DNA of 64,000 nucleotides from an uncultured Candidatus Saccharibacteria bacterium (GCA_964394925.1 CAYMZG010000006.1:16256-80255), one strand, 5' to 3'. Shown: positions 1-26,820, counted from the first letter of the stretch. The notes: generated by a model not told the origin, from the sequence alone. Program-made: numbers and translations.

Positions 1-3000
1 CAAATTGCGACCTGTAACACCACTGGTACAGGTGCCGCCTTTGTCCAAGGCGGCAACAGCTTCGGCGCCCTTGCCCAACTTGGCACTACCGACACCAATA
101 ACCTTCAGGTCATCACGAACAGTGTTGGCCGTGCCTTGTTTGATCAGAGCAACAACCTCTACCTCGGTAACGCTAACGTAACGGGTGGTACTAATGCAGC
201 TCCAAACGCCTTTGCACTTCAGGGCACTGGTAGCTCAACGGCTGGAACTGCAGGTGGTGCTCTCACTATTAATGGTGGAGCAGGTGCTACTACTGGTGCT
301 GGCTCAACTGGTGGTATCCTAACCTTACAGGGAGGTAATGCCGGCGGTACTGACATTGCTGGCGCTAACCTTGTCTTAAATGGTGGACGTGGTACTGGTA
401 CGGGTGTTGGTGGTAACATTGTCTTCCAGTACGCCCCTGCCGGTTCCACAGGCTCAACAGCCAACACCCTGCAAACAGCTTGTACCATAAGTGGTACTAA
501 TGGGAGCCTGAGCTGCCCTGGGGCAGGTGCTTCAAGTGAGCGGTTTGGTAGCGGCTCGACGGCAGCAGGTGCAAGTAGTTTGGCGGTTGGCAATGCTGCA
601 AGCGCAAGTGGCACTGGTAACATTGCGATAGGTGCAAGCACTAGTAGTACAGGTGCTAACAACACTATTTCGATAGGCAACAACATAGCCAATGCAGGCT
701 CAGGTAGCGTTGTAATTGGTATGGGTTCAACAGCTAGCAGTTCTGGTGGCACGACTGGGATTGGTGATCAGGTTACTGTCAGTGCCTGGAAAGCGATTGC
801 AATTGGTCAGCTGGCAAACTCATCATTCCAGGACAGCATTGCTATTGGTAATGGTGCGACGACGACCGCAACTGGCCAAATTGTTTTCGGTAGTGGTACA
901 ACTAATCGTTCAGCTTACAGTACGGCATACTTTGGGAAGGGTGTCGTTGATAGTTCACCGACTGGTTTCACTATTAATGCGACTGGCAGTAATGCCGCTG
1001 GCACCGCCGGAGCAGCCCTATCTTTACAGGGTGGTAATGCCGTCTCAGTACTTAATACTAATGGTGGTAATTTACAGCTCAATGGTGGCCAGGGTACTGG
1101 TACAGGGGTTGGCGGTAATATTGTCTTCCAGTATGCCCCTGCCGGTTCTAGCAGTTCAACGGCCAATGCATTACAAACAGCTTGTACTATTAGCGGTACT
1201 AACGGGAGCCTGAGCTGCCCTGGGGCGGGTACAAGTAGTGAGCGCTTTGGTAGTGGTTCTACGGCAGCAGGATCAAATAGTTTAGCTGTAGGTAACGGGG
1301 CAAGTGCTGCAAATAATGAGTCAACGGCAATCGGTTATAGTGCTGCGAGTACGGGTATTAATAGTACCGCCTTGGGTAGAAGTGCAACCGCTGGGCAGGA
1401 TGCGGTCGCACTTGGGTATAGTGCATCGGCAGGATTTTCTAACTCAATTGCCCTGGGAAGGTCTGCATCCACCACTGCCGCTAACCAGTTAGTTGTTGGT
1501 TCAAGCAGTGCGGCTATCACCTCTGCCTACTTCGGAAACGGTGTCACGGCAGCTACTCCCCAAGGCTTTACCCTTCAGGGGACTGGTAGTAGTGCTGCGG
1601 GCACGGCTGGTGCGGCCTTTACCATCAACGGTGGTGCTGGTGCGACCACCGGTGCTGGCTCAACTGGCGGTATCCTCACTCTGCAGGGTGGTAACGCTGG
1701 TGGTACAGATGTTGCCGGTGCCAACCTTGCTCTTAACGGTGGCCGTGGTACAGGTACAGGGGTTGGCGGTAATATTGTGTTCCAGTATGCCCCTGCCGGT
1801 TCTAGCAGTTCAACTAACAACGCCCTTCAAACTGCCTGTACCATCAGTGGTACCAATGGTAGCTTTAGCTGCCCTGGGGCGGGTACAAGTAGTGAGCGCT
1901 TTGGTAGTGGTTCTACGGCAGCAGGATCAAATAGTTTGGCTGTAGGTAACGGGGCAAGTGCTGCTGGAAATAATTCTGTCGCGGTAGGTTTGAATACATC
2001 AACAAATTTAAGAGGTACAGTCGTTGGTTACTTAAGTACTGCTGGTCAAGACGGGGTAAGCATTGGCCAGAATATTACTACGTCTGGCACTAATAGTGTA
2101 GTGATAGGTAGTGCTGCAGGTGCTTCAGGCAATGCGGCAGTAGCATTAGGCGCGGGGGCCTCAGCAAACTTTAATAATTCAATTGCAATTGGTGGTGCAA
2201 GCTCTACTACAGCTCAAGGTCAAATAGTCTTAGGAAACACGAACTACAACAATGCATACTTTGGCGGTGTCACGGCAGCTACGCCAAATGCCTTCACCCT
2301 CCAGGGTACTGGCAGTAGTACGGCTGGTACGGCTGGCGCAGATTTCACTCTCAAGGGTGGTGCAGGCACCACCACTGGTGCTGGCTCAACTGGTGGTATC
2401 CTCACTCTGCAGGGTGGTAACGCTGGTGGCAGCAACATCGCTGGCGCCAACCTCGTTCTTAACGGTGGCCAGGGTACGGGTACGGGTGTTGGTGGTAACA
2501 TTGTCTTCCAGTACGCTCCAGCAGGCACAACTGGTTCTACTAACAATACCCTACAAACTGCTTGTACCATCAGTGGCACCAATGGTAGCCTGAGCTGTCC
2601 AGGGGCTGGCAGCGGCAGTGAGCGGTTTGGTAGCGGGGCAACGGTAAGTGCATCAAATGGTCTAGCTATTGGTCAAGGCGCATCTGCAAGTGGTACGGCC
2701 TTCTCGATCGCAATTGGTCAGTCGGCAAGTGCAACGGTATCTGATGCAATTGCTTTGGGCCACAGTGCTTCTTCAACGGGTAGCAGCAGTGTGGCTATTG
2801 GTGCAAGTTCGTCAGCCTCATTTGGAACAAGTATTGCTATAGGGGCGTCATCTTCGGCTACGGGTAATAGCTCTACCGCCCTAGGTGGTGGTGCTGTAGC
2901 GAACTCCAACTATTCTATATCGATTGGTAACGGTGCAACCGCTACGGGTGCCAGCCAGCTAGTTATTGGTTCAAGTAGTGCACCGATTTCAAGCGCTTAC

Positions 3001-6000
3001 GTAGGCAATGGCGTGACCGCAGCCACACCACAAAACGTAACCCTCCAGGGTACTGGCAGTAGTACAGCCGGTACGGCTGGCGCAGATTTCACTCTCAAGG
3101 GTGGTGCCGGTACATCTACTACAACCGGATCGGCTGGCGGTAATTTAGTGCTCCAAGGTGGTGCCGCTGGTGGCTCAGGTAATAATAATGGCGGAAACGT
3201 AACTATTAACGCAGGGGCCAAGACTGCATCAGGCACTAACGGAACCATCTCTCTAGGAACATCAAATACAAGTGCTATCACGCTTGGCGCAAGTGGCATA
3301 ACTACAACAAATGCTGGTGCCTTGACAATCAGCCAGCTTCTTACGGGTAACCTAGGCGCTACCATCTCTGGCGCCGCTATATCACTCAACGACTCATCTA
3401 ACTTCAACGTGAGTATTGCTGGCGGTACCAGCACTGGTCAGGTAGATATTGGTACGGGTACGGGTGTACAGACCTTGAACTTTGGTACTGGTGGCACAGG
3501 TGCTAAGACCGTGACCATTGGTTCAAGCGCTTCAACGGGTACAACAACCATAACCAGTGGCACAGGTGGTATAGACATCAATACAAGTACAAGTGGCGGA
3601 GATATTGCTGTTCGGACCGGTACAGGTGGAAGTCTTTCTCTAAGCGCAGATAACTCAATTAATATCGGCATAACGAGCGTAAATGCAATAACGGTTGGAC
3701 GTACTGATACAGATGCTCCAGTAGCTGTTCGGGGTGCAACAACATTTAGTAATACTTCGGCAGCTACCAACACAGTTACTATAAAGGGCGCAGCAAGCCA
3801 ATCCGGTGATTTGATGCAACTTCAGAATAATAGCTCACAGCTACTGACCGCATTTGACGCTTCTGGAAAATTACAATTTGCTGATGGAGCAGGCGGTGCA
3901 GCCGATACTAATCTTTACCGCTCAGCCGCTAATACACTTAAGACGGATGATGCACTCACGGTTGCTGGCCTTCTAACAGGTCAACTTGGCGCCACCATCT
4001 CAGGCGCCACCACCAGCATCAACGCTTCCTCTAACTTTGCTACCAACATTAACACGGGCACCAGTACTGGTGCTGTCACCATTGGTAACTCTGCAGCCGG
4101 TGCTATTGCTATACAGTCTGCTTCAACCGTTGGCATTACAGGTACTACTACCATTACTGGTCTGAGCGGTGGAAGCTCTAAGGCTCTCGTGGTCAATAAT
4201 TCTACCTCAACGGGTAACATCTTCGAAGCCCAAGATAATGGTACGGCAGTGCTGACGGTGGCCGACGGAGGCTTTACCGACATAGGGGCTAGCCTTGAAG
4301 TAGGTGCTGCTAATACCACTGGCTCAGGCGTGTGTATTACTATTGCTGGTAACATCAGCTGTAACACGGGTATAGATAACTACACCAGCAACACTAACAC
4401 TGCCAACAACTCATATGGTACCTACACGGTCCTTGGTGTTACTGCTACTAGCGGTGCTAACACAGCTAGCGACAACGTTGCTGTTCTGGGTAACACCGTA
4501 ACTGCCGGTTCACAGAACTTCAGTTATGCTACTGGTGTTAGCGGTCTGGTGAGGAATGCCACAACAGGCGCAACATCTGATGCACGAGGTATCCAGGGCT
4601 ATGTCAGCAACGATACTGGTGCCGGTACCATGGCACTCGCAAGTGCATTGTATGGTAATGTTAACGCTACCGCTGCTATTACCACTGCAGCTGGGTTGAA
4701 CATTGCTGCCAATACAGGCACTATTACGAATAACTACGGTGCTTGGATCCAGGCACAAACCGCCGGCACTAGTGACTATGGTGCTCGCATCGACGCAGCC
4801 GACACTCAGACACTATGGCTAAGCGGTAATGCCGACAACACTACTGCAGCAGCAGGCATTGCCTTCGGTGCTTCACGAGATACCAACCTCTACCGTTCAG
4901 CTGCTGATACTTTGAAGACTGATGATAGCTTAGTTGTTGGCACTAACTTGTCACTATCTGGCTCTGGCACCTTCACCTCCGGTACGGGTACGGTCACCCT
5001 CCAAGGTAACACTGACGTTGCAGCTACGGTCTCGCTAGCTACCAAGGCGGGTACCACCTATACCACGGCCGGTTCAGCCAACAACGTTGCTATCTCAACT
5101 GCTTCACTGTACATCCTGGATACATCAGGTGCAGCCCAAACCATCACAGGTATTGCAGCTGGTCGTGATGGTCAACAACTCACCCTTGTAAATGCCGACG
5201 CTAGTCTTGTGGTAACCATCTCTAACGAGAGCGCAAGCTCTACGGCAGCTAACCGCATCACTACCGGTACTGGTGCAGACATCACCATTCCTGCTGGTAG
5301 CTCACTCAGCCTTGTCTACGACAGCACTAACAGTCGCTGGCGTACGGTCGGTACTACCGCAACCAGCGGCGGTGGTGCCAACCAACAACTCAGCAACCTC
5401 TCTGGTACCGTAGCAGTGAATCTGGCTCTCAACCCAGGCACTGACAACACCCTCGACCTTGGTTCTGCAGCTAACAGCTGGCGTACGCTCTACGCTGACA
5501 CATCAGTGCTCACACCAAGTGTTGATGTAGCTAGTGCTGGCACTCTGAGTATTGGTAACAGTACTGCTACAGCGGTATCTATATGTAACTCAGCAGCCTG
5601 TGACACCATCACCATTGGCTCTAACGCTGATGCCGATACCATCACCGTAGGCGACAGCAATGACACGGTTGGTATCAATGGCACGACTACGATTACAGGT
5701 AACACCAGTATCAACACCAGTGGTTCGGGTACTACTACCATTGGCAATGCAAGTGCCGGGGCTATAGCTATACAGTCTGCTTCAACCGTTGGTTTAACGG
5801 GTACCACTACTATTACCGGACTCACAAGCGGTGATGCACTTACTGTTAATAACTCAACATCAACAGGTAACATCTTTGTTGCTCAAGATAATGGCTCGGC
5901 TGTCTTCACGATTGCTGATGGGGGGAATGTAACTTTGGCAGCGGACCTGGCAGTTAACGGTGGCGACATTACGACGAACCAAACAACCTTTAATTTGCTT

Positions 6001-9000
6001 AACACAACTGCTACAACAGTTAATGCCTTTGGCGCCGCTACCGCTCTGAACATTGGTGCATCAAGTGGCTTAACGGTTACTCCTGGTGGTAACGTAACCT
6101 TTGCTCAGGCTAATAATAAGGATCTCGCTATTCAGAGTTCTTTGGCGGGGGGCAATAGAACAACAGATGTCCTCACTATTAGTCAGGCAAACGATGCTTC
6201 ATTTACCAACAGCGCTAACTTACTAGAGCTAAACAATGCCGATGTAGATTCAACTGGCCCAGTTGCTAACATTGTACAGAGCTCAACTGCCGCCGGCGCA
6301 TACGCATTAAACATTACGAACTCGAACACTACTGCCACTGGCGCGGCTATAAACATCACGGGTGTAGCTGGCGCTAACGTTCGTGGCATCCTCTTGGGTG
6401 GAATCACGACCGGTATCGGCATAAGCAATACTGCCACAACAACAGGTAGCGCCATTAACCTTGGTGGTGCGCTGACGAGTGGTAACGGTATCTTGTTCAA
6501 CACGACCGCTAACGGCCTAACGAGCGGTAAGGCTCTGAACATATCTGGTTCTGCTTCTGGCATTACAGCCGACTTCTCGGGTGCATACATTAATGTTGAC
6601 CCATCGCGAACATTGACCGCGGCTGCTACCCGTGCAGATTCCGGTAACTACTTGAAGCTTACTCGTGCAGAAACAGTGAACAATGCCAGTGGTGTTATTA
6701 ACATCACGGGTGATGTTGCTAACTTCAGCAGCAACTGTACCCAGACTCTTGGTAGCTGTACTGACAACAGCAACATTCTTGAGCTGCAACAAAGCTATGC
6801 TTCTGCAACTGGTGCTGTCTTGAACGTCGGTGGGGCAGGTACCGGCAACCTGGCTACCCTCGATGCTACTAATAGCTCAGCAAATGGCGTGCTTATCGAC
6901 GTACAGTCGTCGAGTTCGAGTCAGTATGGCTTGAAGGTAACCACAAACAATGGCGGCAGCACTGCTTTGCAAGTAAATGGTGATGGCAGTATCTCGGCTG
7001 GTATTGCTGGTACAACTACAACTGTTAATGGTGCTCTTACTGTTGCCCAATTGCTCACCGGCCAAGCTGGCGCCACCATCTCAGGTGCTACCACCAGCAT
7101 CAATGCTTCAAGCAACTTTGCCACCAACATCAACACCGGCACTTCAACTGGTGCTGTCACCATTGGTAACTCTGCAGCAGGCGCTATAGCGCTACAGTCA
7201 GCTAGTACTATTGGCATCACAGGTACTACTACTATCACCGGTCTGAGCGGTGGAAGCTCTAAAGCCCTCGTAGTAAACAACTCAACCAGTACAGGTAACA
7301 TCTTCGAAGCCCAAGATAATGGCACGGCCGTCTTCACGATTGCTGATGGGGGGAATGTAACGGCAACACAAGACGTTACGGTAGGTAGCCAATTGGCAGT
7401 AGGTTCAACGTCAAGTATACAAACCCGGGAAGTAATATCAGTCGATGAAACGTTCACCAATACGAGTGGCGATAGTATCGGCATAAGTAATGTTATTACG
7501 AGTAATCCTGGGTCGGCTTCGACCGCAGGAATTTATGCGAACTGGAATGAGGCTCTCACCACTGACGGTAATGCACAAAGCGCTACTCTGCTATTGGGAG
7601 CACGAAATCAAGCTACACACCAAGGTGACGGCGACTTAGCGCTACTTTATGGGGCGTACAATTACGGAAATGTTAATTATCTCAATGGTGGCGGAACAGT
7701 CACGTTAGGTGTTGGTGACTATGGCAGGTTCGATAACTGGGGTGCAGCAACCGTTACGAATGCCGCCGGGGTATATGGTGAATCTCATCTTAGCAGCGGA
7801 GGTTCGATCGTAACGAACAATGGGCTGGCAGCCCATGCTTATAACGCAGGTAGCGGTAATATTACAAACAACAAAGGTCTGTATGTACTAAATGAACTGA
7901 CTTCAACTGGAAATATTACGACTAACTATGGCGTTGATATTGCTAGCGCAGTAGATTCAGGCGCTGGGTCAATTACCGATAACTACGGCATAAACGTTCA
8001 AGCTCAAACAGCCGGAACTAATGATTATGGTATCGCAGTCGGTGCCGCCGATACTCAGACATTATGGCTCAGTAGTAATGCTAATAATACTACTGCGGCA
8101 GCTGGCATTGCCTTCGGTTCATCACGCGACACCAACCTCTACCGCTCAGCTGCAGATACTTTGAAAACAGATGACAACTTAAATGTTACACTCGATACAG
8201 ACATAGGTAGCCAGTTGGCAGTTGGTTCGGGTGCAAGTATTACCTCTAATGAAGTTGTATCAATTGATGAAACCTATACAAATACAAGTGGAACTCTGCG
8301 TGGTATAGATAACAGCATTACTTCAAACCCAGCATCGGCATCCAGTGCTGATATTACTGGTACTTACAATACTGTTACACTGCAAGGCTCTAGTAATTAC
8401 ACAGGATTTATATATGGCTCAGTTAATGTAGTGTCAAACAGTAGCACTGCAACAACAACCTACGCTTTTGGATCTACGGGGGCAGTAACAAATATGTCAA
8501 GTGGGGCTATAACGTATGGATACGGAGCTACTGGCTCAGCCATTAATGCCTCTAATGGTAACATGACGTGGGCTGCTGGAGTTGTGGGTCAAGTCCAAAA
8601 TCTAGGCTCAGGAACGATTACTAATGGTATTGGATTATTTGTTCCGTCAGCAGTAAATTCTGGGGGCGGTGCAATAACCACAAATGTTGGCGCTTGGATA
8701 CAAGCTCAAACAGTTGGAGCTACTAATTATGGACTTTTAATAGCAGATATGACCGCCGGGTCTGGAACAAATTATGGTCTAGTAGTGGGAGATGCCAAGA
8801 CAAATGCAGTCTGGATAAATAACAATAATGACTCAACTGACGAAGCTGGTGGCATTGTGTTTGGTCAAAGCAAAGATACCAATCTTTACCGTTCTGCAGC
8901 CAATACGCTTAAGACCGATGATAACCTAGAGGTTGGCACAAACATCTACTTCACAAAAGAGTCTGCTCACACACTACAGATTGCAGATTCTACCACGGCT

Positions 9001-12000
9001 GCTACGGCTGGTGGTGCATTAACGGTTAAGGCTGCAGCTGGTAGCACTTCTGGTACTGGTGGCGCATTGACACTTCAGGGTGGTGCCGGTGGCACAAGCG
9101 GTGCCGGTGGTGCTACTACTGTTGCCGGTGGTGCTGCTGGTGGTGGCAATACAGCTGGTGGCGCATTGACACTTCAGGGTGGTGCTGCAAGTGGTAGCGG
9201 TGCAGGCGGTAATGTATCAATTACTGGTGGTGCGGCTGCAGCCAACGCAAGCTCAACCGGAGGAACCGTAAGTATCGCTTCTGGCGCTGGCTCCACAACT
9301 GGAACTGGTACGGCCGGCTCTACCCTGACAATAAACACTGGTGCTGGTGGTGGCTCTAACGCCAATGCTGGTGGTGCACTTACTGTTCAGGCTGGTGCGG
9401 GTAGCGCTACAGGCGCCGGTGGCGCAATCACCATTACTGGTGGTGCGGGCGGTTCAACATCTGGCGCCGGTGGTGCTTTGAGCTTAAGCGGTGGTGCGGC
9501 TACTACTTCGGGTAATGGTGGTGCGGTTACTATCACTGGTGGTACGGCTGTCGGTGTAACAACTGGTGGTGCAGTGACAATCCAGGGCGGTACTGGTTTG
9601 GCCGGTGGTGCTGTAAACATTTTGGCAGGCTACTTTGGAGATACTTCGGCCGCACTTAACATCGGTACAGTCGGTTCATCAACCAAGTCTTCAACGGTCA
9701 ACATTGCTAATACATCGAGTGGCACAAGCACCCAGACAGTTTCCATTGGTAGTACAGCCAACACAGCTAACTCAGTTACGCTATCGGCTGGCGCAACCGG
9801 TTACGTAAACCTCAACACTGGCCAGGCACAATTCTCTGAAATAACAGGTACACGAACCTTCACTGTCCAGACTCGAACCAGCAACGTAGCTGGTTCAGGA
9901 TTGACCGTTGTTGCTGGTGCTGCGGGCTCAGGTGCAACCGGTGTGGCTGGTGGCACACTGACCCTTCAGGGTGGTGCGGCAGCAGGCACTACGGGTAACG
10001 CTAACGGTGGTGATGTAACTATCACCGGTGGTGCAGCCGTAAACTCAGGCTACCAAGGTTTGGTTAATCTGTCATCAACGGCGTTCAGTACCGCACCTGT
10101 TCAAACTATCAGCTCAACTGGTGTCCAGGCCATTACTGCCGGTAACCAGAACATCTACAGCACCCTGCCAATTACCGCTTCAGTATCTGGCGTCATTGCA
10201 ACGCTTAGTGACCCAGGCCAGAATGTGATTGGTCGCATTCTCTATGTAACCGCGCGTAGTGGTAGTAACGACTTCACCTTGCGACTGAACTCGGCTCGCA
10301 CACCAATCGACATTACGATGAAGGCTAACAGCACAGCTACACTTATTTGGAACGGTACGGACTGGACCGCCGCCGGTGCCTCAAGCTCAACTGACCTTCA
10401 GGCTGCCTACAATAACACGGTTTCGAGTGCTGGTGGTGCTGAGCTGATTCTAAATGCCCCTGGTGGAAACGCCGATGGTTTGACGATCCGTAACAACGCC
10501 ACTACGCCTATCACTGGTGGTTTGCTTGAAGTTCAGACTTCTATCGGTGGTAACTTGTTTAGCGTGAATAATAACGCAACCGAGTATGCTACCAACGGTG
10601 GTGGCGAAACATCAGGTACTTCAAGCTGTACGAGTGGCTTCCCGGCCAGCACTTGGACTACTGCACCTGCTGGTGGTACCTGTTCACGAACTACAACATC
10701 TGGCACCTACACCACTGGTCAGGCAGCTGCTGCGGTTACTACGACTGGCACGCAATATCACGGTCTTTCTAACCAATTAAGCACTACTATGACTGCCGGC
10801 TTGCGCTACACGGTATCATTCACCGTAAAGGGTAGTGCTAACTTTACCGCTCTCGAAGCAGTTTACTCAGCTAACGGCACGGCAACCGCTGGTCAAGTTC
10901 GCTCATGTTTCTTCGGCACACCAACCTTAACTGGTACGGCCGGTAGCCAGACTACCACTACTATCACGGGTAGCAACTTTACGGCTTCAATGGTCGGTTC
11001 GGTTATTGTCTTTGCTAACGGCCAGTCAGCATACATTACGGGCTACACTAACTCTACAACTCTTACCACGAGCGCTGCCTTTAGTCAGACTGTTACAAGC
11101 CAGAACTACAGCATTTACACCAACACCATTACCACCAACCAAAGTACGTGGACTCGTGTAACTTGTGACTTTATTGCTCCATCTGGTGCAACTTCTTCAA
11201 ACGCTATCTTCATTCGTCAGAACGACTCTACGGCTCGCACCTTCTACGTAGATAACTTGAGCGTAACCGTTAACGCTAGTGTTAACCACGCCGCTGACGG
11301 TAGCGTCGACAGTGCGCTTAGCCCTAACTGGGTAGCATCTGGTGGCTCAGTTACTCTCGACAGCACGAACATTTACGACACCAGTGGCGCAGTGAGCGTA
11401 ACCACCGGTGCGACTAACCGTGGTGTCTACAACTTTATGGGTACAAATGGTATTACCCCAACCGTGAGTGCTACGGGCGTACAATACCGCGCATCCTTCT
11501 ACGTAAAAGGTAACAGTGGCAGTGTTACGCTTACTAACTCAAGCGTCTACTACTCACCAGATGGCGGCACGACCGTTCGTAACTGTAACGACCTGAATAC
11601 TGCTACGGTCGGTACGTCGTCATACACTCTTGTAAGCTGTATTTTTACCACAAATAACACGGCCGCCAGCGCTCCACGCTTCTACATTCTTAACACCTCT
11701 AACACCAGCTTCTTCGTTGATGCCCTCACCATAACGCTTAATACTAACACAGCTAACAACGTACAAATCGGTGGTGCTAACAACGGTGGTCCAATCACTT
11801 TGTTCACGCTTGATCGATCGGCCGGTGCACCAATTGCTGCCAACAACGACGCTTACCTAGGCTCAATGTACTTTGACACGGCTACTAACAGCATCCAGTG
11901 TTATGGTACGAGCGGTTGGGGTGCTTGTGGTGCTGCGCCTGACAATATTGTGAACCTCAACCCTGAGTACGCTGGTGCTGTACTTAACGGGTCGGGCGTG

Positions 12001-12925: not shown

Positions 12926-12970
12926 CTACACTTGAGAAGTAGGTAACATAGAAAGCCCACGCTTATAGGG

Positions 12971-18900: not shown

Positions 18901-19297
18901 GAGCTGGACGAGTGATTACACCGGGGGTATTATCACCTACAAAGATGGCACCACAGCAAACATTGTGAGCGTTAACAGCACCACGAGTATTACGGTAGAT
19001 ACATCAAGAACAATTGGCAGTTCTGAAACATACAGCGTTGAAGGCGGTAACATTAACTGTGCACGTTATTACTACTTCTTCCTTACAATTGATGCTTCAC
19101 AAACCTTTGGTTATCCAGAAGATGTTAATCGTGGTCCGACTCTATACGACCTTTCGCTCTTCTTCACAGCTGATCCAAGCAAGCGCTTAAGGCACGGTGC
19201 AACCTTCACGGGTGGTGAGCTGCAACCTCTTGATACGCCATGTCGAAGAGGAAGTGCAGTCTCTGGTGATCCTAACTACAACTGCCCACTCCCATGA
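12971..19297 (+). CDS. Giant membrane-anchored Kelch-repeat protein with nested poly-glycine domain (2,108 aa)
   Basis: N-terminal basic region plus one hydrophobic helix (AVVCLLLVISILGTVIQPIL). The poly-Gly domain runs from SFVVPSGVSSVTVKLWGGGGGGGGG to GNPGVIVISW. There are about 18 Kelch-blade signatures of the type [YF].[YF]..GG (YLYVIGG, RMYIMGG, TIYVLGG, and so on). Two C-terminal copies of a ~65-aa module are shared with the first giant gene. The ORF ends in a tandem stop, TGA TGA TAG. Confidence 0.9.
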   Translation: MDDIKMRSQRGSFRAAETPRAASARPLNQARDSASSTSTMPSPSHSNGIVSLRNSHKTYWLMRSIGGTASTKLRKKSLKHTSFFRHLKKSRFIRAYSAVVCLLLVISILGTVIQPILDKKPYKMSPQAKALLPAGNPHLAELVKFNAKEASFAYNSGYTGKVNPDSDKAGTGEARVTASFSEDPMKGMSVTDPANQLTIKMTPQFTMLKGKQDQNQILYRLANQDGYLVYTARTASIKEDIVLDSYKGDTARFSYKMELPNGLEARLESDGSVGIYGVSSALLGNVATSTDQDRELLEKARKNGQKSDLISVIPKPLVLDGYKKESTTVKAHFELTDSTLTIVSEGMANATYPLTIDPTVYIASAAQLMKGNNETNADFDVSNDLIQKSRTTGARINDWTNALGLPEALWGQGTAMAGGYVYIAGGKKELKKTYTDKGASSFVVPSGVSSVTVKLWGGGGGGGGGAASGAGGAGGGSGYVTGTLAVTAGETLTLNIGGGGAGGRYDGAGNDAGGGGGGGGYSSIYRSSTALAVAPGGGGGGGARNATAGGAGAPGGNATSATAGGTVGNGGGGGGATSGGGGTAGTAGSNTGTAGGTLVGGEGADGRGAQGADGSGVAGGIGGGADGGSANTVTGTTTYAGGGGGGGGYYGGGGGGAPTSANGNAGGGGGGGVAYTGGLTGATPTAGSTTSPGNSGDADRSYGPVAGGTGGAAGAATADGTAGNPGVIVISWSGSTSVVQTVYWAHINDSTGAIEATNPGNGACSGWCTNSAYNLPAALYGFSMVAYNGYLYVIGGSNSSNTPQSTVYIAKLGANGEPQKWHPTGGTPDYWYSDTALSAARSQFAAVAYNNRMYIMGGLTGTAPGTVVSSDTVQYADIKPMGTFSTWTSTGMSALLSNRYGLTAQVYNDTIYVLGGSTSFGGSTLQTVDYAKLNSDGTMNTWVNTSSIATSGRVTGGGGSFSTIWGAYIYVGGGCSTMNGSGYCTAGATDMQLASINADGSLGSFNTIIGLYNKRVGYTMTAWQGSLFRFGGCISQNTSTGGCDAPAGSSSYGLVNQDGEASTVATSVASGTAPCSGGSPYSCNMPSASVGNVLNEAVIMNGFLYIMGGCTNEACTTVSTGITYQAISSDGTLQKPSSCSGSYTDSYCVSSTSLPVGLAAGATATFNGRMYIVGGFNTDTRIYYTSVNNDGSIAAWSNVDLTTIGAEDVTYAYAYARANPASAGTSPGNLYIFGGCTDGTVGCSNYTDGVYKCLISTTGVPSACSKTANGTQLQIGTVTGTDGNPTSSAGLGAMAGAVYANYIYLIGGLAPGTFGTDLKMTRYAKFDSSNNVVAISGSTWTEDSSHQLSTGRRRGAGFGYNGYIYVVGGFEGTTGVLADIEFAKLNVSDGSWGSWSSSTVTINQRWGLTVPISNSYAYVIGGCINGAAPGSCNRRTNTIQTFQIYNNDSGTASSFTNINNDFTTDTNRWGASSAVLNGKVYVAGGCTSTTDCTTATASVQYASINGNDGSLTSWSAATKGIGDTGSGGQLRAWGKLVAVQGYLYYLGGQTSTATATQSTVYYVKPASSGDISGNWSQASGGIGDTASQAAQARSKFGVAVWNDRIYVLGGLDGSGTPVATNTVYYSPTLTSSGGIAADSWTSDADTLSQSRYGVAVTAYANNLYTVGGIDSSGNYMNDVQYSQINSDGTIDSWVLSTSLPSSIAQAEVFAANGYMYVVGGRSASTSCVPNTLVAPVSANTTIATGNNPTGVGEWYETNVRYAGGRYGAALSYYGGKMYIFGGGCTYPLTGAYSTGNITQSGNTLTGTAGASWSDDLVGATITYLDASTATVVRVISSTSMVVSVSKTIGSAQTYSVAYGKHQYGVLKSQPQLAKYSRMIDTDTDVFPTAWLANGLDNSIGARWQARYRSMHDIDSAVSPSEDCGTSATMTTMTTWGRDVNFGNTTLGNVNSYTPRNGSYYTTGSITQSGTAVTGSGTSWTSDYTGGIITYKDGTTANIVSVNSTTSITVDTSRTIGSSETYSVEGGNINCARYYYFFLTIDASQTFGYPEDVNRGPTLYDLSLFFTADPSKRLRHGATFTGGELQPLDTPCRRGSAVSGDPNYNCPLP

Positions 19298-19305
19298 TGA
19301 TAGCG

Positions 19306-19311
19306 TATAAT
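19306..19311 (+). promoter_or_regulatory. -10 box (TATAAT) 11 nt upstream of ATG 19323
   Basis: Sequence gcgTATAATgagttcgtattATG lies immediately after the stop of the upstream giant gene, implying a very short leader. Confidence 0.35.
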
Positions 19312-19322
19312 GAGTTCGTATT

Positions 19323-20315
19323 ATGAGTGGTAAGGGGAACGATTTTTGGCTTGATGACCCGGACTGGGCTAATTTGCTAAGTAAACAAAATGGTAAGCTC
19401 AGCGCCAAATTGTCACGAGCTCAGCGTAAGCAGCTTAAAGAGGCTCAATTTCAGGCGACATTAAAGGCCCAACAGGCTCAGGCTGCAGCACAACAACCAT
19501 CTGTAAATGCAACAATACATGAGGCGCGCAATAACATGCGCACAGCAAATACGAGGCCGAATCAATACAATCAGAGATATAGTGCACACGGAGCATCACC
19601 ACGCAACACCCAATCGCAAGTGCCCACTACTACTTCAACTCAACCAGTAACCAAAGAAGGCACAAAGAGCGTCAACGTATCCCTCAATCTTACGTTACCG
19701 CACATTAACCTCGGACCAATTAAGAAACATATTGTAAACGGTTATCGTCGGGTCGTACCAACGACTGCAAGGCAACAAGTAAAGAGCAAATACGCCTCAC
19801 TAAGTCGTAAACAACGTATTATTGGCGCCTCGGCATTGGTGGTTGTACTGGTGGCGGTTTTGGGTAGCTTTGTACTCTTTGGTGATACTAAGAACAATCC
19901 AGCAGCTGACACAAAAGATGTGCTTGGAAAACAAACTGTAACAATTGACTTTAAGCCACTATTGCCTAACGGTAGTGAGAGTGAGACATCAGCACATAAA
20001 ACAGCTGTTGATGGTCAAAATCGTCCAATCTACACCTTTACTGACAAAATAGGCATTACTGACCTGACGGTGACTGAACAGCCATTGCCCGAGAAACTAA
20101 AAACTAACACTGATAGTGAGCTAGAAAAAATGGCCAAAGATCTCTACTTAACAGAGGTAATTAACGCATCTAACCCTAAAGCTTACATGGGAACGAGCAT
20201 CAAAGGCCCCCAGACGGTAATTTTTACTAAAAACGGCTTGCTTGTATTTGTTCAATCACAGGCTAAAATCGACAAAGATCAATGGTCAGACTATATCACT
20301 CGACTCGTGCCATAG
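19323..20315 (+). CDS. Single-pass membrane protein: Gln-rich disordered N-terminus, ~135-aa extracytoplasmic C-terminal domain
   Basis: 330-aa ORF with one hydrophobic helix (IIGASALVVVLVAVLGSFVLF). The basic, Q-rich N-terminal half is consistent with a cytoplasmic location. The C-terminal domain (..LTVTEQPLP..GPQTVIFTKNGLLVFVQS..DQWSDYITRL) resembles, from memory, DUF4367-type domains of anti-sigma-factor-like proteins. Confidence 0.75.
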   Translation: MSGKGNDFWLDDPDWANLLSKQNGKLSAKLSRAQRKQLKEAQFQATLKAQQAQAAAQQPSVNATIHEARNNMRTANTRPNQYNQRYSAHGASPRNTQSQVPTTTSTQPVTKEGTKSVNVSLNLTLPHINLGPIKKHIVNGYRRVVPTTARQQVKSKYASLSRKQRIIGASALVVVLVAVLGSFVLFGDTKNNPAADTKDVLGKQTVTIDFKPLLPNGSESETSAHKTAVDGQNRPIYTFTDKIGITDLTVTEQPLPEKLKTNTDSELEKMAKDLYLTEVINASNPKAYMGTSIKGPQTVIFTKNGLLVFVQSQAKIDKDQWSDYITRLVP

Positions 20316-20691
20316 TATTACTAATATTATAAAGCTAGCCATATAATACCAGTTAACAGAGACGGCATTTTGGTTTGCAGGGAGACGCGAACTTACGACT
20401 CGGCAAAAAACATACCAAAACGGATTGCGACCACTTATCCACAATAAGTACACAAAACAGGGGTAAAAACACTTTACAAGCATAAGCCCTCCGCGATAAA
20501 CTGTTAATGATCTGTTAAAAAACAAAAACAACTCACGCTAAGAACAGGGGCAAAACCCATGAGACGCACGAGCCAAAAACAAAAATAGATCAGGAGCAAA
20601 ACGGGGAACTTCTTTATCCGGTACCAAGAAGAACCTGCGCTGCTTGCCAAAAAAACAACACAAAAATCAAAAATAAAGGTCCTCACACCAA

Positions 20692-23600
20692 GTGTCTAAA
20701 ACCAGGCGACCGATTGACATTTTGCGACGTACGCGTCGTAAACCAGGAATAGTCCGAGCTCTACAGCGGGTAGGGTTGGGACTGTTTTTGGTTTTGGTCA
20801 GCCTCGCTGTTATTTCTTATACGCGCGCAGGTGCACGCGTAGGCACATACGCGGGCGTGAGCACACGCGCGTACGCAGCGGGCAGTAGTGAGCTGAACTT
20901 CCAGGCTCGTTTGATGAACGCTTCTGGCGGCATCGTGCCTGATGGCAACAGCTACTCGGTGCAGTTCAAGCTCTACGATGCCGCCAGCGGTGGCACCAAC
21001 GAGTGGACCGAAACACAGGGCAGCATGACGGTGAAGAGCGGCTACCTCAGTGTTCACCTCGGTAGTGTGACACCATTCGGCAGTAGCATCGACTGGAGCC
21101 AGGAACACTGGTTGACCATGAACGTGAACGGCGACGGCGAAATGAGCCCACGCCTCAAGCTTACCGCCGTGCCATACGCTTTTCGCTCTGGTCAGGCCGA
21201 TAAACTCACCAACGGTAGCGGCACGCTGACCGCCAACGACCTGGCACAACTTGCGCCAAGCTCAGTACAAGCAGTCAACACCGCCCTGGCTGCTCTACGA
21301 ATTAACCAGCAGGGTAGTGGTTTGTTGGCACAGCTTCAAGGGAATGGTTCGGATGTGTTCACCGTCGCCAAGACCGGCGATGTAACCAGCACAGGCTCGG
21401 CTAGCTTCGACGGCAACGGCACCTTCAAGGGTGGTCAGTTGACGGTTGGCACGGCGAGCCAGCAAGGAAAGTTGAGCTTGCATGATGGAGCAGGTAATAC
21501 CCTTACACTTCAGAGTGGTGCCCAGTCTGGCAACCTCACATTTACACTTCCAACAAGTTACGGTAATAACCTAGAGTGTCTCAAGACAAACGGCAGTGGT
21601 GTACTGAGCTTTGGTGGTTGTGCACCAGCGAACGCCTACACTAACGGGGGTAATAGCTTTGGGGCTGCAGCTACCCTCGGTACACAAGACAATAACTCGC
21701 TATCATTCGTAACCAACGGTAGTCAGCGAATGCTCCTCGATACTGCTGGCAATATTACCCTGGGCACCGTTGATACAACTGGTTCGCTACTCGTTCTCGA
21801 CACCAAGAGTAATGCTGGTGATCCAACCGGCAGTAACGGTGCTATGTACTACAACTCCTTCATGGGTAAATTCCGCTGTTACGAAAATGGTGGCTGGACA
21901 GATTGTATTAGTGGTGCCTCGGCAAACACTTCTGCCAACTTTGTAAGCGGCTTGCAAAACGTGGCTTCAAACCAAACGGGAGCAGTTGTAGAAACAATGA
22001 TTTTTACAAGTGCTACGGCAGTTTCGAACACAGCCGGAGTAACAGGCTTCACCGCTCCGGCTAACGGTAGCTTCCGCAGCTGTATGGTCAAAAACACCGC
22101 AGCCATCACGGCGGGAACGCTGAGTGTTCGGTGGCGCGTAAATGGTGTGTCGGTTGGCTCGGCTATGTGTACGATGGATTCTACGAACAACCGCCAAACA
22201 GCCGGCACCCTTAACTCGGGTGTGGTCACGTTTAATGCGGGTGATACGATCGGCATCGCCTTCGACACAAGTGCGGGCTTTCTGCCAACCGGAACCAACG
22301 ACTTTACGGTTTACTGGGGTGTTGATTACACGGGCGGTGGCGGTGGCGGTGGCGGTAATGTGTTCGATCTGCAAGACGCCTATGACAACTCAATCAACGC
22401 TTCAATTCTCACTGCCAACAACAAGGATCTCACCGTAAGCTTGGCAAATACGAGTATCGACAGTAACTTTATCGTTGATATACAAAGTGGTTCAACGGGC
22501 GAGTTCAAAGTACAAAATAATGGTACCGATGTGCTGCGCGTGAACAGTAATGGTGATATCACCTCAAACGGTGGACTTACGCTTGGTAATAGCACAAGTA
22601 CCACTGCCGGTACAATTCGTTGGACAGGCCTTGACTTCGAGGGCTTCGACGGGGCTACTTGGAAGTCACTTACATCCGGTGGCGGCGGTGGCGGCAGTGG
22701 CATAAGTAGCAATTACGTTAATCTTGTTAAGCAAACCAACGAAACTGTGAACAACTCTATTGCTCTTCAGGATGATGACGAACTAGCATTTAACATTGGC
22801 GCTAACGAAGAGTGGACATATCGTTTTGTTGTTCAGGCAAACTCGGGTACGGTGCCAGACTTGCGCTTCGCTGTCAGCGCTCCCGCTGGCGCAACCTGTT
22901 TTGTATCATTTAGCGACCCCGAGGGTGCGACGTCTGACGGTCAGTATGGCTGCGGGGTTACATCGGTTAGCATACCGGGCAACGGTGCCGTTGACCTATA
23001 TGAGATTACCGGTTCAGTAAAGAATGGTGCAACGCCGGGAGTTGTTCGCTTGCGATGGGCGCAATTTACGCTTAATGCTTCGAACACCATTGTGTATGCC
23101 GGTAGCTACGTAAATGCGTACCGAACGATTGGTTCTGGTGGTGCTGGTCAGCCATTTGCACAAAGTGGCAATGCTTTTGGCGCAACGGCAGTGCTTGGTA
23201 CTACCGACAATAACGCACTCAACTTTATCACAAATGGCACACAAGTCTTGAGCCTTGCGACAAGTGGCCTGGCAACCTTCCAGGGTGGTGTAACTACTAA
23301 TGGCGCACTTACCGTAAGCAGTGGCGGCCTAGCAGTTACGGGCAATGGTTCGGTTAGCGGTGGTCTCACTATTGGTAGCAGTAATGCACTCAGCATAAGT
23401 AGCAGTGGAGATATTACGGGTACCATGCAGGCACTCAATGGTTCATCAACTGCCAGCGGTGCAGGTACAAATAGTACCAGCCTGGTACTGGCAAGTGTTA
23501 CTAACTTTGACGTTGGTAACTACGTGCAGGTAAGCTCAACCAACTGTACGACCGGCGTGAATGTGTGTTACGCCAAGATTACTGCAATTGATATTGGCAC

Positions 23601-26600
23601 CAACACGCTCACCATTACACCGGCTCTCACATGGGCGAATGGTTCAGTAGTTGTTGAGTATCATGTACCAGAGCTTGGTGGCAGTAACACAAGCCAGCCT
23701 CTGGCAAATCGCTTTGGCCGCGGTTATTTCATCTCAGGTATCGCGACCGGTAACGGCACGACTTACTACAACGAGGACAGCATAACAACGTCACTTACGA
23801 GCTTCGATCTTTTGAATTCAGGTGTTACCACGTTAAACATTGGCGGTTCGGCAACAACCTTGAATCTGGGCAATGCGAGCACCACAACGACCATTAGTGG
23901 TAATGTGCAATTCACCGGTAGCGTGACGGCACCAACTAGCGGCACCTCTGGTTATCTGTCACGTAGTGGTACAACATTATCTCCATCGAATAGCGGCGAT
24001 AACTTTACTACGAGTGGTAATATTTCAACAACTGGAACAGGCGGCATCACCTCAGCCGGCGCGATTTCGGGCGCAACAACCGGTAACACCATTAATGGGT
24101 TAGTCATTAACTCAGGTGCATTGAGTAATATCACTACCTTGAACGCTTCTGGTCTGGCAACGGTGAACGGTCTTGATGCCGGGGCCGGTCAGATTACCAG
24201 CAGTGGTGGTCTCAGTATCACGGGTACCAGCTCAATCAACGGCAACAGCATCTCAAGCACGCAATTTACCTTCGGCGGCGCCGGCACCATTACAACAGGC
24301 AGCAATGGCAACCTCACCCTAGTACCAAATGGCTCAGGTAGCTTAGTATTGAACACGGGTACGGGTGGCACGGCAACCACAAACATTACGACCTTGCAGC
24401 GTACGGCAGCTGGTAGCCTGACATTTGATCTAAATGACACCGGCTCAACAACACTTACCCTTAACAACTCTGGTACAGGTGTAGCGAATCTCAACCTAAC
24501 AGATGGTGGCCTGTACACCGCAGGTACTCAGCGTATTGCTAACGGTGGTGCATTGCAGAATGTAACTGGTGACAACACCAACGGTGTTAGCTTGAACGCA
24601 AACGTTATTACTAGCGGTACGTTGAGCACCGCTCGAGGCGGTACGGGCGTAAATGGCTCAGGTGCTACAAATGGTCAACTACTCATAGGTAACGGCAGCG
24701 GCTTTACGCTCAGTAGTCTTACAAATGACGGGGGCCTAACCATAACTAATGGCGCAGGAAGCATTGGCATAGGGGTCAACTACGGATCAACCAGCACTTC
24801 GGCCGTCCGTGGCGACACTGGCCTCGTTTGTGCTTCGGGTACTGGCAACCTTACTGGTGGTGGCAACACTGTTACTCTTGGTGCTGGCGGCACCTGTAGC
24901 GCGCTTGATACAGCTGCGGCTGTTAGCTTCGGCACGAGCGTTACTACACCTCTCCTTACAACTGCTGGCGCACTCAATATTAATACGGCCAACTCAGCTG
25001 CAGCCAATACGGGTGCCATTACTATTAAGTCAGGTGATGCATCAACGGGTGCCAACTTGAGTGCTGGCACTATCACACTCGATACGGGTACTAAGACTGG
25101 CGCGGGTACAGCACTCATTAATATAGGTAACACAAATGCAACCAGCTTAGTGCTTGGCAATGCCAGCACAACCACAACCTTAAATGGCACAGGCTTAACG
25201 CTTGGCGCAGGTCTTAATACCATTACACGTACTGCTGCAGGTACAACCACCTTCAACTTGGTTGACACAGCAAACACTACATTCGCGTTTACTAACACTG
25301 GTGCAGGCAACTTAAATCTCACCGCCGACGGCACCATTACTGCAGGCAGTGGCTTAACCGTAAGTGCTAATGGTGCATCAATCAGTGGTGGCCTGAATAA
25401 CAACAGCGGTGGTATTAGCGGTGCTGGCTCAATAACCGGCGTTGGTACAAACATCACCGCAACCGCTGGTCTTACGATCGGTTCTGGCGGTACAGGCGAC
25501 CTTACGCTTGATTCAGCTTCGAACAAGTTGGTCATTGCGGCGAATGACACCACCATGCAACGTACTGCCACAGGATCATTTACGATTGATCTAAATGACA
25601 CAGGTGCAACCACGCTTGTTATTAATAACTCGGGCACGGGAGCTGCTAACTTGAACTTGAGCGATGGCGGTCTGCAGGTTGCCGGCACATCAGTGCTTAC
25701 TAACGGCGCTGCTCTGCAAAACATTGCAGGCTTTGGTCAGACATCTGGTAACTTTGCTATGAGTGGCACTGGTACGTTTGCTACGGGTAGTGGTAACGTA
25801 GGTTTGAATGGTGCAACGACCATTTCAACAAATGCCAACAGCACCTCATCATTAACGGTTAATGGTACTACTGGCACGGCTGCCACAGCCATGAACATTG
25901 CACAAACGGGCGCAGCAGGCAACTTGGCCATGACTAACACTGCTGCTACCAGCCAGGCTCTCGTAAGTCTCACGCAAAGTACATCGGCCTACACGGGCAC
26001 AGGACTCCTTATTAATATGGCATCTGGCTCGGGCACCTTTGCAAGTGGTAACTTCGCCGACTTCCAGTTGAACGGTACGAGTCGCTTTACGGTCGATAAC
26101 ACGGGTGCTCTAACTATTAACAGCACAAATGGTAATGCCCTGAAGGTTACGAACACATCAGGTGTCTCATACTTCGATGTTGATACCTCTGGCAACCAGA
26201 TTACTGTTGGTGCAGCCGACGCAACTACGGTACTCTTTGTACTAGACAGCTCATCTACGACCAGTGATCCAGGTGCTGTAGCTGGAGCGATGTACTACCG
26301 CACAAGTGATAGCAAGTTCCGCTGCGCAGAAGGTACTGCTTGGAAAGATTGTCTCACTGGTGCCGACTTCTCGGCCACACTATCTTCAGCCTTTACTGTC
26401 ACAAATGGTGGCTTAACAGCTGTGACCGGCTTCTCGTTCACAGCTACTGCAGGCGAGACCTGGGAAGTTACTGTAAATGGTACTACCTCTGCCAACAATG
26501 CCACCGGTGACATTGCATGTGATCTTATGACTGCAGGTACCTGGGGTACCGGGCAGTCATACAGCCAAGGCGTCCATTACTCGAATGCAGGTGCTATTAC

Positions 26601-26820
26601 CAACCGAGCACCAACGGCCGCAGCTTCAACTACCACGCAAGCAGGTACGTTAACGGTGAATAACGGTGATGGTGTTGTAAGACCAATTCAGATGACCTAT
26701 CGCTTTGTGGTTACCGCAAATGGAACAGTAAGCTTCCGTTGTGGTAACGCTGCGCCAGCAGCTGGACGTACATCAACGCTTAACTCGGGCGCAATTATGC
26801 TCGCGCGTCGCATCGATTAA
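20692..26820 (+). CDS. Giant membrane-anchored fibre protein with three tail-fibre-like tip units (2,042 aa)
   Basis: GTG start is the first start codon after an in-frame TAA. The N-terminus is basic with one TM helix (VGLGLFLVLVSLAVISY). A post-anchor domain follows (ELNFQARLMNASGGIVPDGNSYSVQFKLYD...LKLTAVPYAF). There are two GN[SA]FGA..LGT.DNN.L.F.TNG motifs, two poly-Gly hinges, and three tip-like beta-sandwich-type segments. Two of these are preceded by GAMYY....FRC...G.W.DC. Confidence 0.9.
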   Translation: MSKTRRPIDILRRTRRKPGIVRALQRVGLGLFLVLVSLAVISYTRAGARVGTYAGVSTRAYAAGSSELNFQARLMNASGGIVPDGNSYSVQFKLYDAASGGTNEWTETQGSMTVKSGYLSVHLGSVTPFGSSIDWSQEHWLTMNVNGDGEMSPRLKLTAVPYAFRSGQADKLTNGSGTLTANDLAQLAPSSVQAVNTALAALRINQQGSGLLAQLQGNGSDVFTVAKTGDVTSTGSASFDGNGTFKGGQLTVGTASQQGKLSLHDGAGNTLTLQSGAQSGNLTFTLPTSYGNNLECLKTNGSGVLSFGGCAPANAYTNGGNSFGAAATLGTQDNNSLSFVTNGSQRMLLDTAGNITLGTVDTTGSLLVLDTKSNAGDPTGSNGAMYYNSFMGKFRCYENGGWTDCISGASANTSANFVSGLQNVASNQTGAVVETMIFTSATAVSNTAGVTGFTAPANGSFRSCMVKNTAAITAGTLSVRWRVNGVSVGSAMCTMDSTNNRQTAGTLNSGVVTFNAGDTIGIAFDTSAGFLPTGTNDFTVYWGVDYTGGGGGGGGNVFDLQDAYDNSINASILTANNKDLTVSLANTSIDSNFIVDIQSGSTGEFKVQNNGTDVLRVNSNGDITSNGGLTLGNSTSTTAGTIRWTGLDFEGFDGATWKSLTSGGGGGGSGISSNYVNLVKQTNETVNNSIALQDDDELAFNIGANEEWTYRFVVQANSGTVPDLRFAVSAPAGATCFVSFSDPEGATSDGQYGCGVTSVSIPGNGAVDLYEITGSVKNGATPGVVRLRWAQFTLNASNTIVYAGSYVNAYRTIGSGGAGQPFAQSGNAFGATAVLGTTDNNALNFITNGTQVLSLATSGLATFQGGVTTNGALTVSSGGLAVTGNGSVSGGLTIGSSNALSISSSGDITGTMQALNGSSTASGAGTNSTSLVLASVTNFDVGNYVQVSSTNCTTGVNVCYAKITAIDIGTNTLTITPALTWANGSVVVEYHVPELGGSNTSQPLANRFGRGYFISGIATGNGTTYYNEDSITTSLTSFDLLNSGVTTLNIGGSATTLNLGNASTTTTISGNVQFTGSVTAPTSGTSGYLSRSGTTLSPSNSGDNFTTSGNISTTGTGGITSAGAISGATTGNTINGLVINSGALSNITTLNASGLATVNGLDAGAGQITSSGGLSITGTSSINGNSISSTQFTFGGAGTITTGSNGNLTLVPNGSGSLVLNTGTGGTATTNITTLQRTAAGSLTFDLNDTGSTTLTLNNSGTGVANLNLTDGGLYTAGTQRIANGGALQNVTGDNTNGVSLNANVITSGTLSTARGGTGVNGSGATNGQLLIGNGSGFTLSSLTNDGGLTITNGAGSIGIGVNYGSTSTSAVRGDTGLVCASGTGNLTGGGNTVTLGAGGTCSALDTAAAVSFGTSVTTPLLTTAGALNINTANSAAANTGAITIKSGDASTGANLSAGTITLDTGTKTGAGTALINIGNTNATSLVLGNASTTTTLNGTGLTLGAGLNTITRTAAGTTTFNLVDTANTTFAFTNTGAGNLNLTADGTITAGSGLTVSANGASISGGLNNNSGGISGAGSITGVGTNITATAGLTIGSGGTGDLTLDSASNKLVIAANDTTMQRTATGSFTIDLNDTGATTLVINNSGTGAANLNLSDGGLQVAGTSVLTNGAALQNIAGFGQTSGNFAMSGTGTFATGSGNVGLNGATTISTNANSTSSLTVNGTTGTAATAMNIAQTGAAGNLAMTNTAATSQALVSLTQSTSAYTGTGLLINMASGSGTFASGNFADFQLNGTSRFTVDNTGALTINSTNGNALKVTNTSGVSYFDVDTSGNQITVGAADATTVLFVLDSSSTTSDPGAVAGAMYYRTSDSKFRCAEGTAWKDCLTGADFSATLSSAFTVTNGGLTAVTGFSFTATAGETWEVTVNGTTSANNATGDIACDLMTAGTWGTGQSYSQGVHYSNAGAITNRAPTAAASTTTQAGTLTVNNGDGVVRPIQMTYRFVVTANGTVSFRCGNAAPAAGRTSTLNSGAIMLARRID

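Follow-up and report, generated by a model that had tools for sequence, protein, structure and literature searches.

A 64,000-nucleotide stretch of DNA from an uncultured Saccharibacterium, referred to below as the window, carries at its start a locus of three giant genes, designated g1, g2 and g3, and a gene for a small membrane protein, designated m. On its sequence, the locus holds two members (g1 and g3) of a huge unannotated family resembling phage tail fibres and the mosaic adhesive trimer (MAT) fibres of predatory bacteria, beside a distinct, fast-evolving membrane giant (g2) assigned Kelch and glycine-rich domains. The reading that we favour, with moderate confidence, is that g1 and g3 are paralogous surface fibres exported by the Sec pathway, probably homotrimeric, and built on the plan of phage receptor-binding fibres and MAT fibres. 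Their tips and lectin domains would bind the glycans of another cell, and g2 would be separate. We infer that g1 and g3 are candidates for host attachment.

Saccharibacteria are ultrasmall bacteria of the Candidate Phyla Radiation (CPR), and it is still an open question by what means epibionts of this group recognise the bacteria that they live on. The only factors implicated to date are type IV pili and a handful of unrelated adhesins (PMC10633639, PMC11665869). The source was identified from ParB, which shares 87% identity with its counterpart in an uncultured Saccharibacteria genome; its further relatives are Saccharimonadia. This agrees with the epibiont-type organism suggested in a preliminary description of the window, which was made from the DNA alone. 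That description reported three co-oriented giant open reading frames (ORFs) and a membrane protein, and their sizes, strand, share of the window and distance from parA were all reproduced:

1..12483, + strand: g1, frame 1 open from nucleotide 1 to the stop; at least 4,160 residues, with the 5′ end beyond the window edge
12971-19297, + strand: g2, ORF of 2,108 residues
19323-20315, + strand: m, ORF of 330 residues, a membrane protein
20692-26820, + strand: g3, ORF of 2,042 residues with a GTG start

The block (1-26820) makes up 41.9% of the window, and parA starts at 26893, 72 nucleotides past the end of g3. There is one hydrophobic helix in each of g2, m and g3. The giants contain no LPXTG motif and no C-terminal hydrophobic segment, and g1 has no match to YadA_anchor, in line with the lack of LPXTG and of a beta-barrel-like anchor noted in the preliminary description.

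Four modules (i to iv) had been proposed to be shared between the giants, and all proved to be real when tested by BLAST of protein fragments and 300 sequence shuffles. Module i at g1 residues 13-62 aligns with g3 residues 315-364 and 817-848. Module ii, which is LQAAYNN at g1 residue 3465 and LQDAYDN at g3 residue 559, is conserved in both protein families. Module iii of g1 (residues 3916-3976) aligns with g3 residues 350-405, and within g3 residues 326-409 align with residues 1806-1891. Module iv is repeated in g2, where residues 1787-1860 align with residues 1954-2027. Fold and profile searches bear out the suggestion that these parts are of the kind found in phage tail fibres and bacterial surface fibres, and the description of the giants as modular extracytoplasmic proteins of the fibre or adhesin type, made from shared parts, holds.

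Homologues of g3 (n = 384) are mostly large Patescibacteria proteins, some of them named ‘tail fiber domain-containing protein’. Motifs and tips in this family were counted over 121 relatives. The family of the g1 C-terminal region consists of 173 proteins, typically 1,100-1,600 residues long, and many of them bear the name ‘carbohydrate binding domain-containing protein [Saccharimonadales]’; the family was gathered with that region of g1, and the counts given here rest on 120 listed of the 173. Module iii is identified as a conserved neck, being found in 117/121 members of the g3 family and 120/120 of the g1 family, and it is followed in every case by a tip of 130-215 residues. In the g1 family the module iii core always (120/120) precedes a tail of about 181 residues, and the tips of the g3 family form at least 10 unrelated clusters.

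The N-terminal domain of g3 consists of about 105 residues (63-169), with columns that are 90-100% invariant, and neither Pfam nor NCBIfam has a model for it. A full HMMER pass over a library of 1.84 billion proteins gave 23,749 cluster representatives at E ≤ 1e-3, in which the domain is almost always N-terminal; proteins carrying it reach 6,297 residues. Judged by these searches, it is a very abundant unannotated domain. It is present in 120 of the 121 g3 relatives, and because 88 of the 120 listed members of the g1 family also start with a domain of this type, g1 and g3 are classed as paralogues in one superfamily. The superfamily has a common plan of signal peptide, repetitive shafts, conserved neck (module iii) and interchangeable C-terminal tips. 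We take the N-terminal motif to resemble the N-termini of tail-fibre-domain proteins from the Fibrobacteres-Chlorobi-Bacteroidetes (FCB) group, which serves as a lead only. The locus had been put forward as an undescribed apparatus; this does not hold for g1 and g3, which belong to a superfamily of this size and have an architecture that matches published MAT fibres.

The N-terminus of g3 is probably a Sec signal peptide and not a type-II anchor. A basic and hydrophobic stretch, followed by an AxA↓A site 4-5 residues ahead of the conserved N-terminal domain, is found in 115 of the 121 g3 relatives, and it is this conserved pattern that leads us to read the N-terminus as cleavable. Type-II anchors had been suggested for both g2 and g3; the suggestion stands for g2, which has no AxA site, and is doubtful for g3. 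The conserved signal peptide of the g3 family is consistent with export. The features of g3 are as follows:

20692..20877, + strand: probable Sec signal peptide (basic stretch, hydrophobic helix, AYA↓A)
20878..21198, + strand: conserved N-terminal domain (residues 63-169), a proposed cell-proximal docking domain
21634..22335, + strand: module i (residues 315-364), module iii (residues 365-405) and globular beta-sandwich A (residues 406-548), then a poly-Gly linker
22366..23271, + strand: module ii (LQDAYDN), a GTIRW...FEGFDG..W neck, a poly-Gly linker, beta-sandwich B (residues 672-813) and a second module i (residues 817-860)
23272..26217, + strand: repetitive shaft rich in Gly, Thr, Ser and Asn, with internal repeats 42-57% identical
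26218..26817, + strand: terminal module iii (residues 1843-1891) and a 151-residue C-terminal tip

Part of the g3 shaft aligns with g1 residues 1990-2034. The tip is of a type limited to the three closest relatives. Runs of 6-8 glycines occur at 22336-22359 (residues 549-556, just after domain A) and at 22678-22695 (residues 663-668, a few residues before domain B), and relatives of g3 have glycine-rich stretches at the same places. Lying beside globular domains, these runs look like hinges.

Structures of g1 and g3 were modelled as monomers, and the fold searches run on these models found lectin, carbohydrate-binding module (CBM) and tail-fibre folds. The model of g3 residues 60-870 has a mean predicted local distance difference test (pLDDT) score of 70, with the N-terminal and globular domains confident (85-92 for the N-terminal domain). 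In the PDB it matched the TNF-like lectins BC2L-C (2wq4, TM-score 0.65) and PLTL, and also the C-terminal domain of Chlamydia Pgp3, the tip of Bdellovibrio Bd2734 (8okw), and phage tail and central fibres. The TNF-like match belongs to the g3 model overall, and domain A, domain B or both may align. A profile of the family matches Bdellovibrio Bd3182 via module i (E = 0.005).

The endosialidase-chaperone domain PF13884 (S74) is found in many g3 relatives, with the motif in 20/121. In these 20 relatives (P0051, P0057 and 18 others) the motif is never terminal: 344-357 residues always separate it from the C-terminus, and after it come shaft, module iii and a 131-residue tip. If S74 self-cleaves as in phages, the distal tip of these relatives would be shed. 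Neither g1 nor g3 has an S74 domain, and they would therefore belong to a non-S74 subgroup. The TNF-like, YadA-like (see below) and S74 parts together suggest that g1 and g3 are probably homotrimers.

The g1 protein is longer and contains a different set of domains:

37..186, + strand: module i (residues 13-62)
184..3105, + strand: four tandem repeats of about 240 residues, each a Gly/Thr-rich stretch and then YadA-head/Hep_Hag-like repeats
3118..10020, + strand: repetitive shaft with a segmental duplication of about 3.1-3.2 kb and a Gly/Ala-rich stretch (residues ~3000-3340)
10138..10398, + strand: beta-sandwich like the phage depolymerase C-terminal domain (PF25692 match, model pLDDT 80-90)
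10390-10413, + strand: module ii (LQAAYNN), following the depolymerase-like beta-sandwich
10648..11688, + strand: two CBM-like jelly-roll domains, the first of which holds a module iv insert (10924-11118)
11746..12480, + strand: module iii neck (residues 3916-3976) and a 184-residue C-terminal tip (model pLDDT about 90)

Identity among the tandem repeats (units of about 700 nucleotides) is 60-86% at the protein level and 73-90% at the DNA level. In the shaft, residues 1321-1424 and 2348-2451 are 94% identical, and the DNA repeats 3947->7028 and 4790->8039 are 81-83% identical, from which g1 is judged to have grown through internal duplication. The YadA-head-like label given in the preliminary description was supported by a match of residues 620-752 to the YadA head (1p9h, E = 2e-7), and there is a further match to Hep_Hag (3s6l, E = 9e-4).

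The C-terminal part of g1 (residues 3380-4160) was modelled with a mean pLDDT of 78.5. The match of the beta-sandwich to PF25692 (Phage_depo_C) is weak (E = 1e-4; 23.1 bits, below the cut-off of 25). For the CBM-like region, Foldseek found a tandem CBM22 (4xup, E = 5e-10), and CBM16 and CBM4 at TM-scores of 0.66-0.76. Pfam CBM_4_9 matched residues 3776-3896 with 23.1 bits, below its cut-off of 25.9, but exceeds the cut-off in relatives, so that the CBM-like label also stands. The C-terminal tip is a conserved 184-residue beta-sandwich.

Tandem CBM folds and a weak Phage_depo_C match would also suit proteins serving nutrient capture or polysaccharide degradation rather than adhesion, with the CBMs, Kelch and depolymerase-like domains holding or processing glycans. 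The Kelch propellers (discussed next) show similarity, in a relative, to enzymes that handle sugars, for example NanM, and some g1-family members have beta-helix domains. However, searches of the three giants found no catalytic domain of a glycoside hydrolase or lyase, and an enzyme needs no fibre of several thousand residues. We consider this explanation distinctly unlikely.

The g2 protein is of a different kind from g1 and g3, and lacks their N-terminal domain. It starts with a 92-residue basic cytoplasmic tail and a transmembrane helix (residues 93-116). This long basic tail and single helix, with no AxA site, do look like a type-II anchor. The helix is followed by a domain of about 290 residues, then by a glycine-rich domain at residues ~436-675, which aligns with positions 2-222 of the 226-position family PF21722 (Gly_rich_2) at 15.2 bits, below the cut-off of 24.3. 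PF21722 is recorded (precomputed) in relatives, and a rescan of one of them (P0242) gave 23.3 bits, just below the cut-off. The 18-blade Kelch array of the preliminary description was recovered, with Kelch_1 at E = 8e-34, six-bladed Kelch matches in the PDB at E = 1e-13, and about 18 blade signatures, all but one of which lie at residues ~733-1790; the remaining one, at ~421, precedes the glycine-rich insert. The protein ends with two copies of module iv (residues 1787-1860 and 1954-2027) and a C-terminal domain. The small protein m is single-pass, with a basic, Gln-rich N-terminal part of 165 residues, a transmembrane helix at residues ~166-186 and a C-terminal domain of about 140 residues; no match was found in Pfam, NCBIfam or PHROG.

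The arrangement beside parAB is conserved. The order g1-g2-m-g3-parA-parB is kept in two close relatives, L001 and L002, and in L005 the genes upstream of parAB encode a Kelch giant, a homologue of m and an N-domain fibre, so that the synteny of g2-m-g3-parAB persists to a ParB identity of only 60%. In L006, a more distant Saccharimonadia genome, an N-domain fibre (11-3820) is followed by a 1,736-residue LVIVD-propeller giant (3952-9162) adjoining parA. L006 thus repeats the combination of fibre and propeller giant, with a propeller of another type.

The genes differ in how fast they evolve. Compared with L001, housekeeping proteins are 80-94% identical (PrmC 67%), g3 is 84% and the g1 C-terminal region 86% identical; the g1 homologue of L001 starts at a contig edge and its length is not comparable. 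In contrast, g2 is 48% and m 49% identical to the L001 proteins. Including L002, g2 is 48-55% identical to the syntenic genes, and m, which keeps its place between g2 and g3 in L001, L002 and L005, is 36-49% identical. Nei-Gojobori counts against L001 gave proportions of non-synonymous (pN) and synonymous (pS) differences of 0.07-0.08 and about 0.65 for g1 and g3, like ParA (for g3, pN = 0.068 and pS = 0.67); their pN/pS resembles that of ParA and RF1. For g2 and m, pN is 0.36 and 0.26. The non-synonymous divergence of g2 and m from the closest relative is 4-5 times that of neighbouring genes, g1 and g3 included. These counts place g1 and g3 under purifying selection like housekeeping genes, and mark g2 and m as the fast-evolving members. 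No pseudogenisation was seen in the relatives: the genes are intact there, their order is kept and selection on them is purifying, which marks the giants as functional genes.

The housekeeping rate of g1 and g3, the extreme conservation of the N-terminal domain and the conserved g1 tip in 120 relatives would suit structural envelope or coat proteins (S-layer-like or fibrillar), whose CBM and lectin domains bind the cell's own wall polymers with no recognition of a partner. The position of the locus in the core chromosome, near an LCP wall-polymer ligase and a signal peptidase, fits this as well. On the other hand, neither cassette-like alternative tips behind a conserved neck nor S74 tail-spike chaperone domains are normal for S-layer proteins, and the closest folds are those of receptor-binding lectins and phage fibres. 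A coat function is therefore judged fairly unlikely.

Against viral models, the g3 model gave 194 matches at E ≤ 1e-3, with tail-fibre and minor-tail proteins leading. Domain B of g3 (window 22723-23124, residues 678-811) also has tblastn matches at 27% identity (E = 2e-4) in six Streptomyces phages. The phage gene matched encodes a 500-residue hypothetical protein (L011 4936-6435), located between the major capsid and head-tail connector genes. Cultured Saccharibacteria have Actinobacteria as hosts. These are the only sequence-level phage matches of the whole locus; when the shaft and tip of g3 and the C-terminal region of g1 were searched against phages by tblastn, no match came up.

The matches to tail fibres, minor tail proteins and Streptomyces phages, and the S74 domains in relatives, raise the question of whether the giants are remnants of a prophage, a tailocin or another mobile island with viral tail-fibre genes. 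The context makes this very improbable. Downstream of g3 the window is all housekeeping (ParAB, signal peptidase I, LCP ligase, HtrA, PrmC, RF1, RRF, UppS, tRNA synthetases, SecA, RF2 and FtsEX), and gene annotation found no phage, integrase, tail or reverse-transcriptase genes elsewhere in the 64 kb. PHROG scans gave nothing relevant, and the G+C content of the locus (0.47-0.55) differs little from that of the rest of the window (0.45-0.50). In addition, the same parAB-side arrangement is found at only 60% ParB identity, and N-terminal signal peptides point to export by the cell. The mobile-island or prophage reading is rejected on context and synteny, and the ‘island’ of the preliminary description is replaced by a locus of the core chromosome. 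Variation of the tips driven by a diversity-generating retroelement (DGR) was ruled out at this locus, there being no reverse transcriptase or other DGR gene in the window.

It is thus the surface-fibre reading that we retain, and it can be set out as a sequence of proposed steps. The signal peptide of g1 and g3 would be cut at the AxA site, and the N-terminal domain would keep the fibre attached to the envelope. The next part would be a long beta-rich shaft of repetitive sequence, lengthened in g1 by internal duplication. Lectin-type domains would lie along the shaft and at its end: in g1, YadA-head-like repeats and tandem CBMs, and in g3, two internal TNF-like beta-sandwich knobs set off by the poly-Gly hinges. 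The module iii neck would bear the interchangeable C-terminal tip. Glycans on the surface of a second cell would be the targets of the tips and lectin domains, and the most plausible such cell is the bacterium that hosts the epibiont. The g2 protein would be anchored in the membrane and combine three Kelch propellers of six blades each with an ALK-GRD-like glycine-rich domain, and g2 and m may be exposed partners. The gene structures, the assignment of domains and folds, membership of the family, synteny and selection were established here; that the fibres trimerise, are displayed on the surface, dock through the N-terminal domain, bind glycans and act in host contact is what we infer.

Several observations weigh against this reading. 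Many host-range determinants evolve fast; g1 and g3 do not between close relatives, and it is across the wider family that the tips differ. The mean pLDDT of the g3 model is only 70, the TNF match is not pinned to one domain, and the models are of monomers only; g3 also lacks S74. The annotation tables of the model Saccharibacterium Southlakia hold no tail-fibre or Kelch entries, and its characterised essential adhesins carry VCBS, dockerin and FN3 domains instead.

A more general proposal can be made, which we regard as possible but doubtful. Saccharibacteria, and other Patescibacteria too, may carry a very large uncharacterised expansion of trimeric fibres, MAT-like or like phage receptor-binding proteins, which would be defined by one N-terminal docking domain (about 24,000 clusters) and would set host range through exchange of tip cassettes behind module iii. 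The parAB-side locus would then pair a fibre with a small membrane protein and a fast-evolving, membrane-anchored propeller giant, of the Kelch type here and of the LVIVD type in L006, as a unit anchoring or deploying the fibres. The single integrated machine envisaged in the preliminary description goes further than the data, in that only adjacency and partial synteny tie the three giants together. A promoter and terminator scan did no better than on shuffled sequence, and we therefore make no claim of an operon. Rfam and tRNA scans of the window gave no matches, and scans with PHROG and NCBIfam profiles added no information.

Two other genes in the window may be mentioned. A heliorhodopsin gene (PF18761, E = 9e-29) lies at 47751-48713 (+ strand), surrounded by housekeeping genes. 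At 31138-31890 (+ strand) there is a 250-residue protein with no Pfam match; its identity in L001 is 94%, a conservation equal to that of RF1, and it is kept adjoining the LCP gene in every relative examined.

If the fibres are recognition devices, they would provide a host-range predictor, readable from sequence, for thousands of uncultured genomes, and a direct evolutionary link among phage receptor-binding proteins, predator MAT fibres and epibiont adhesins. They would also supply concrete constructs for binding assays, in the form of tips, CBMs and the N-terminal domain. Should they be ordinary coat proteins, less would be gained, namely the annotation of a very abundant domain family that has no model.

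Comparison with known systems shows partial likeness to several. Phage fibres (actinophage minor tail proteins, lambda-type J/Stf and T5-type S74 fibres) share the modular shaft and tip, the conserved proximal and exchangeable distal ends, the viral model matches, S74 in relatives and, in g1, the weak match to a depolymerase C-terminal sandwich. They differ in that g1 and g3 lie in a core chromosomal locus with no virion genes and carry signal peptides, that sequence similarity to known phages is confined to domain B of g3, and that the S74 domain of g3 relatives is non-terminal. Trimeric autotransporters (YadA, Hep_Hag) resemble g1 in the YadA-head-type repeats at residues ~170-1000; PF05658 is found in one relative (P0134), and some relatives have been given this label by annotators at the Joint Genome Institute (JGI). 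However, g1 has no C-terminal beta-barrel translocator, and none would be expected in a cell lacking an outer membrane. The globular domains of g3 and g1 find their best fold matches in TNF-like lectins (BC2L-C N-terminal domain, PLTL) and CBMs of families 4, 9, 16 and 22, but here the domains are embedded in giant fibres and sequence identity is only 9-18%.

The closest described system to g1 and g3 is that of the MAT fibres of Bdellovibrio bacteriovorus (Caulton et al., 2024; PMC10769870). These have an invariant N-terminal domain and a trimeric shaft, occur in S74 and non-S74 subgroups, carry swappable TNF-like, lectin or beta-sandwich tips, and are displayed on the predator surface, where they bind prey glycans (PMC10769870). 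MAT proteins have been reported from several predator-associated lineages, Patescibacteria not among them (PMC10769870), and our literature search found no paper linking the two. Like MAT proteins, g1 and g3 are cell-encoded, signal-peptide-bearing and tail-fibre-like, with a long beta-rich shaft and swappable tips. Their relatives share one invariant N-terminal domain, which is a likeness of plan. The g3 family likewise has at least 10 unrelated tip clusters behind a conserved neck, and S74 and non-S74 subgroups; TNF-like lectins are among the fold matches of g3, and both kinds of organism live by attaching to other bacteria. Direct links of g3 are the fold match to the Bd2734 tip and the profile match to Bd3182. 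There are also differences: the organism here is a monoderm-type Patescibacterium, g1 and g3 are 2-4 times longer or more, g3 has globular TNF-like knobs inside the fibre too, and g1 adds YadA-head repeats and tandem CBMs. We therefore describe g1 and g3 as MAT-like and do not claim MAT membership. Bd3182, of 922 residues, was modelled as about 550 Å long (PMC10769870), and a rough scaling from this length would make g3 some 120 nm long and put g1 at 250 nm or above.

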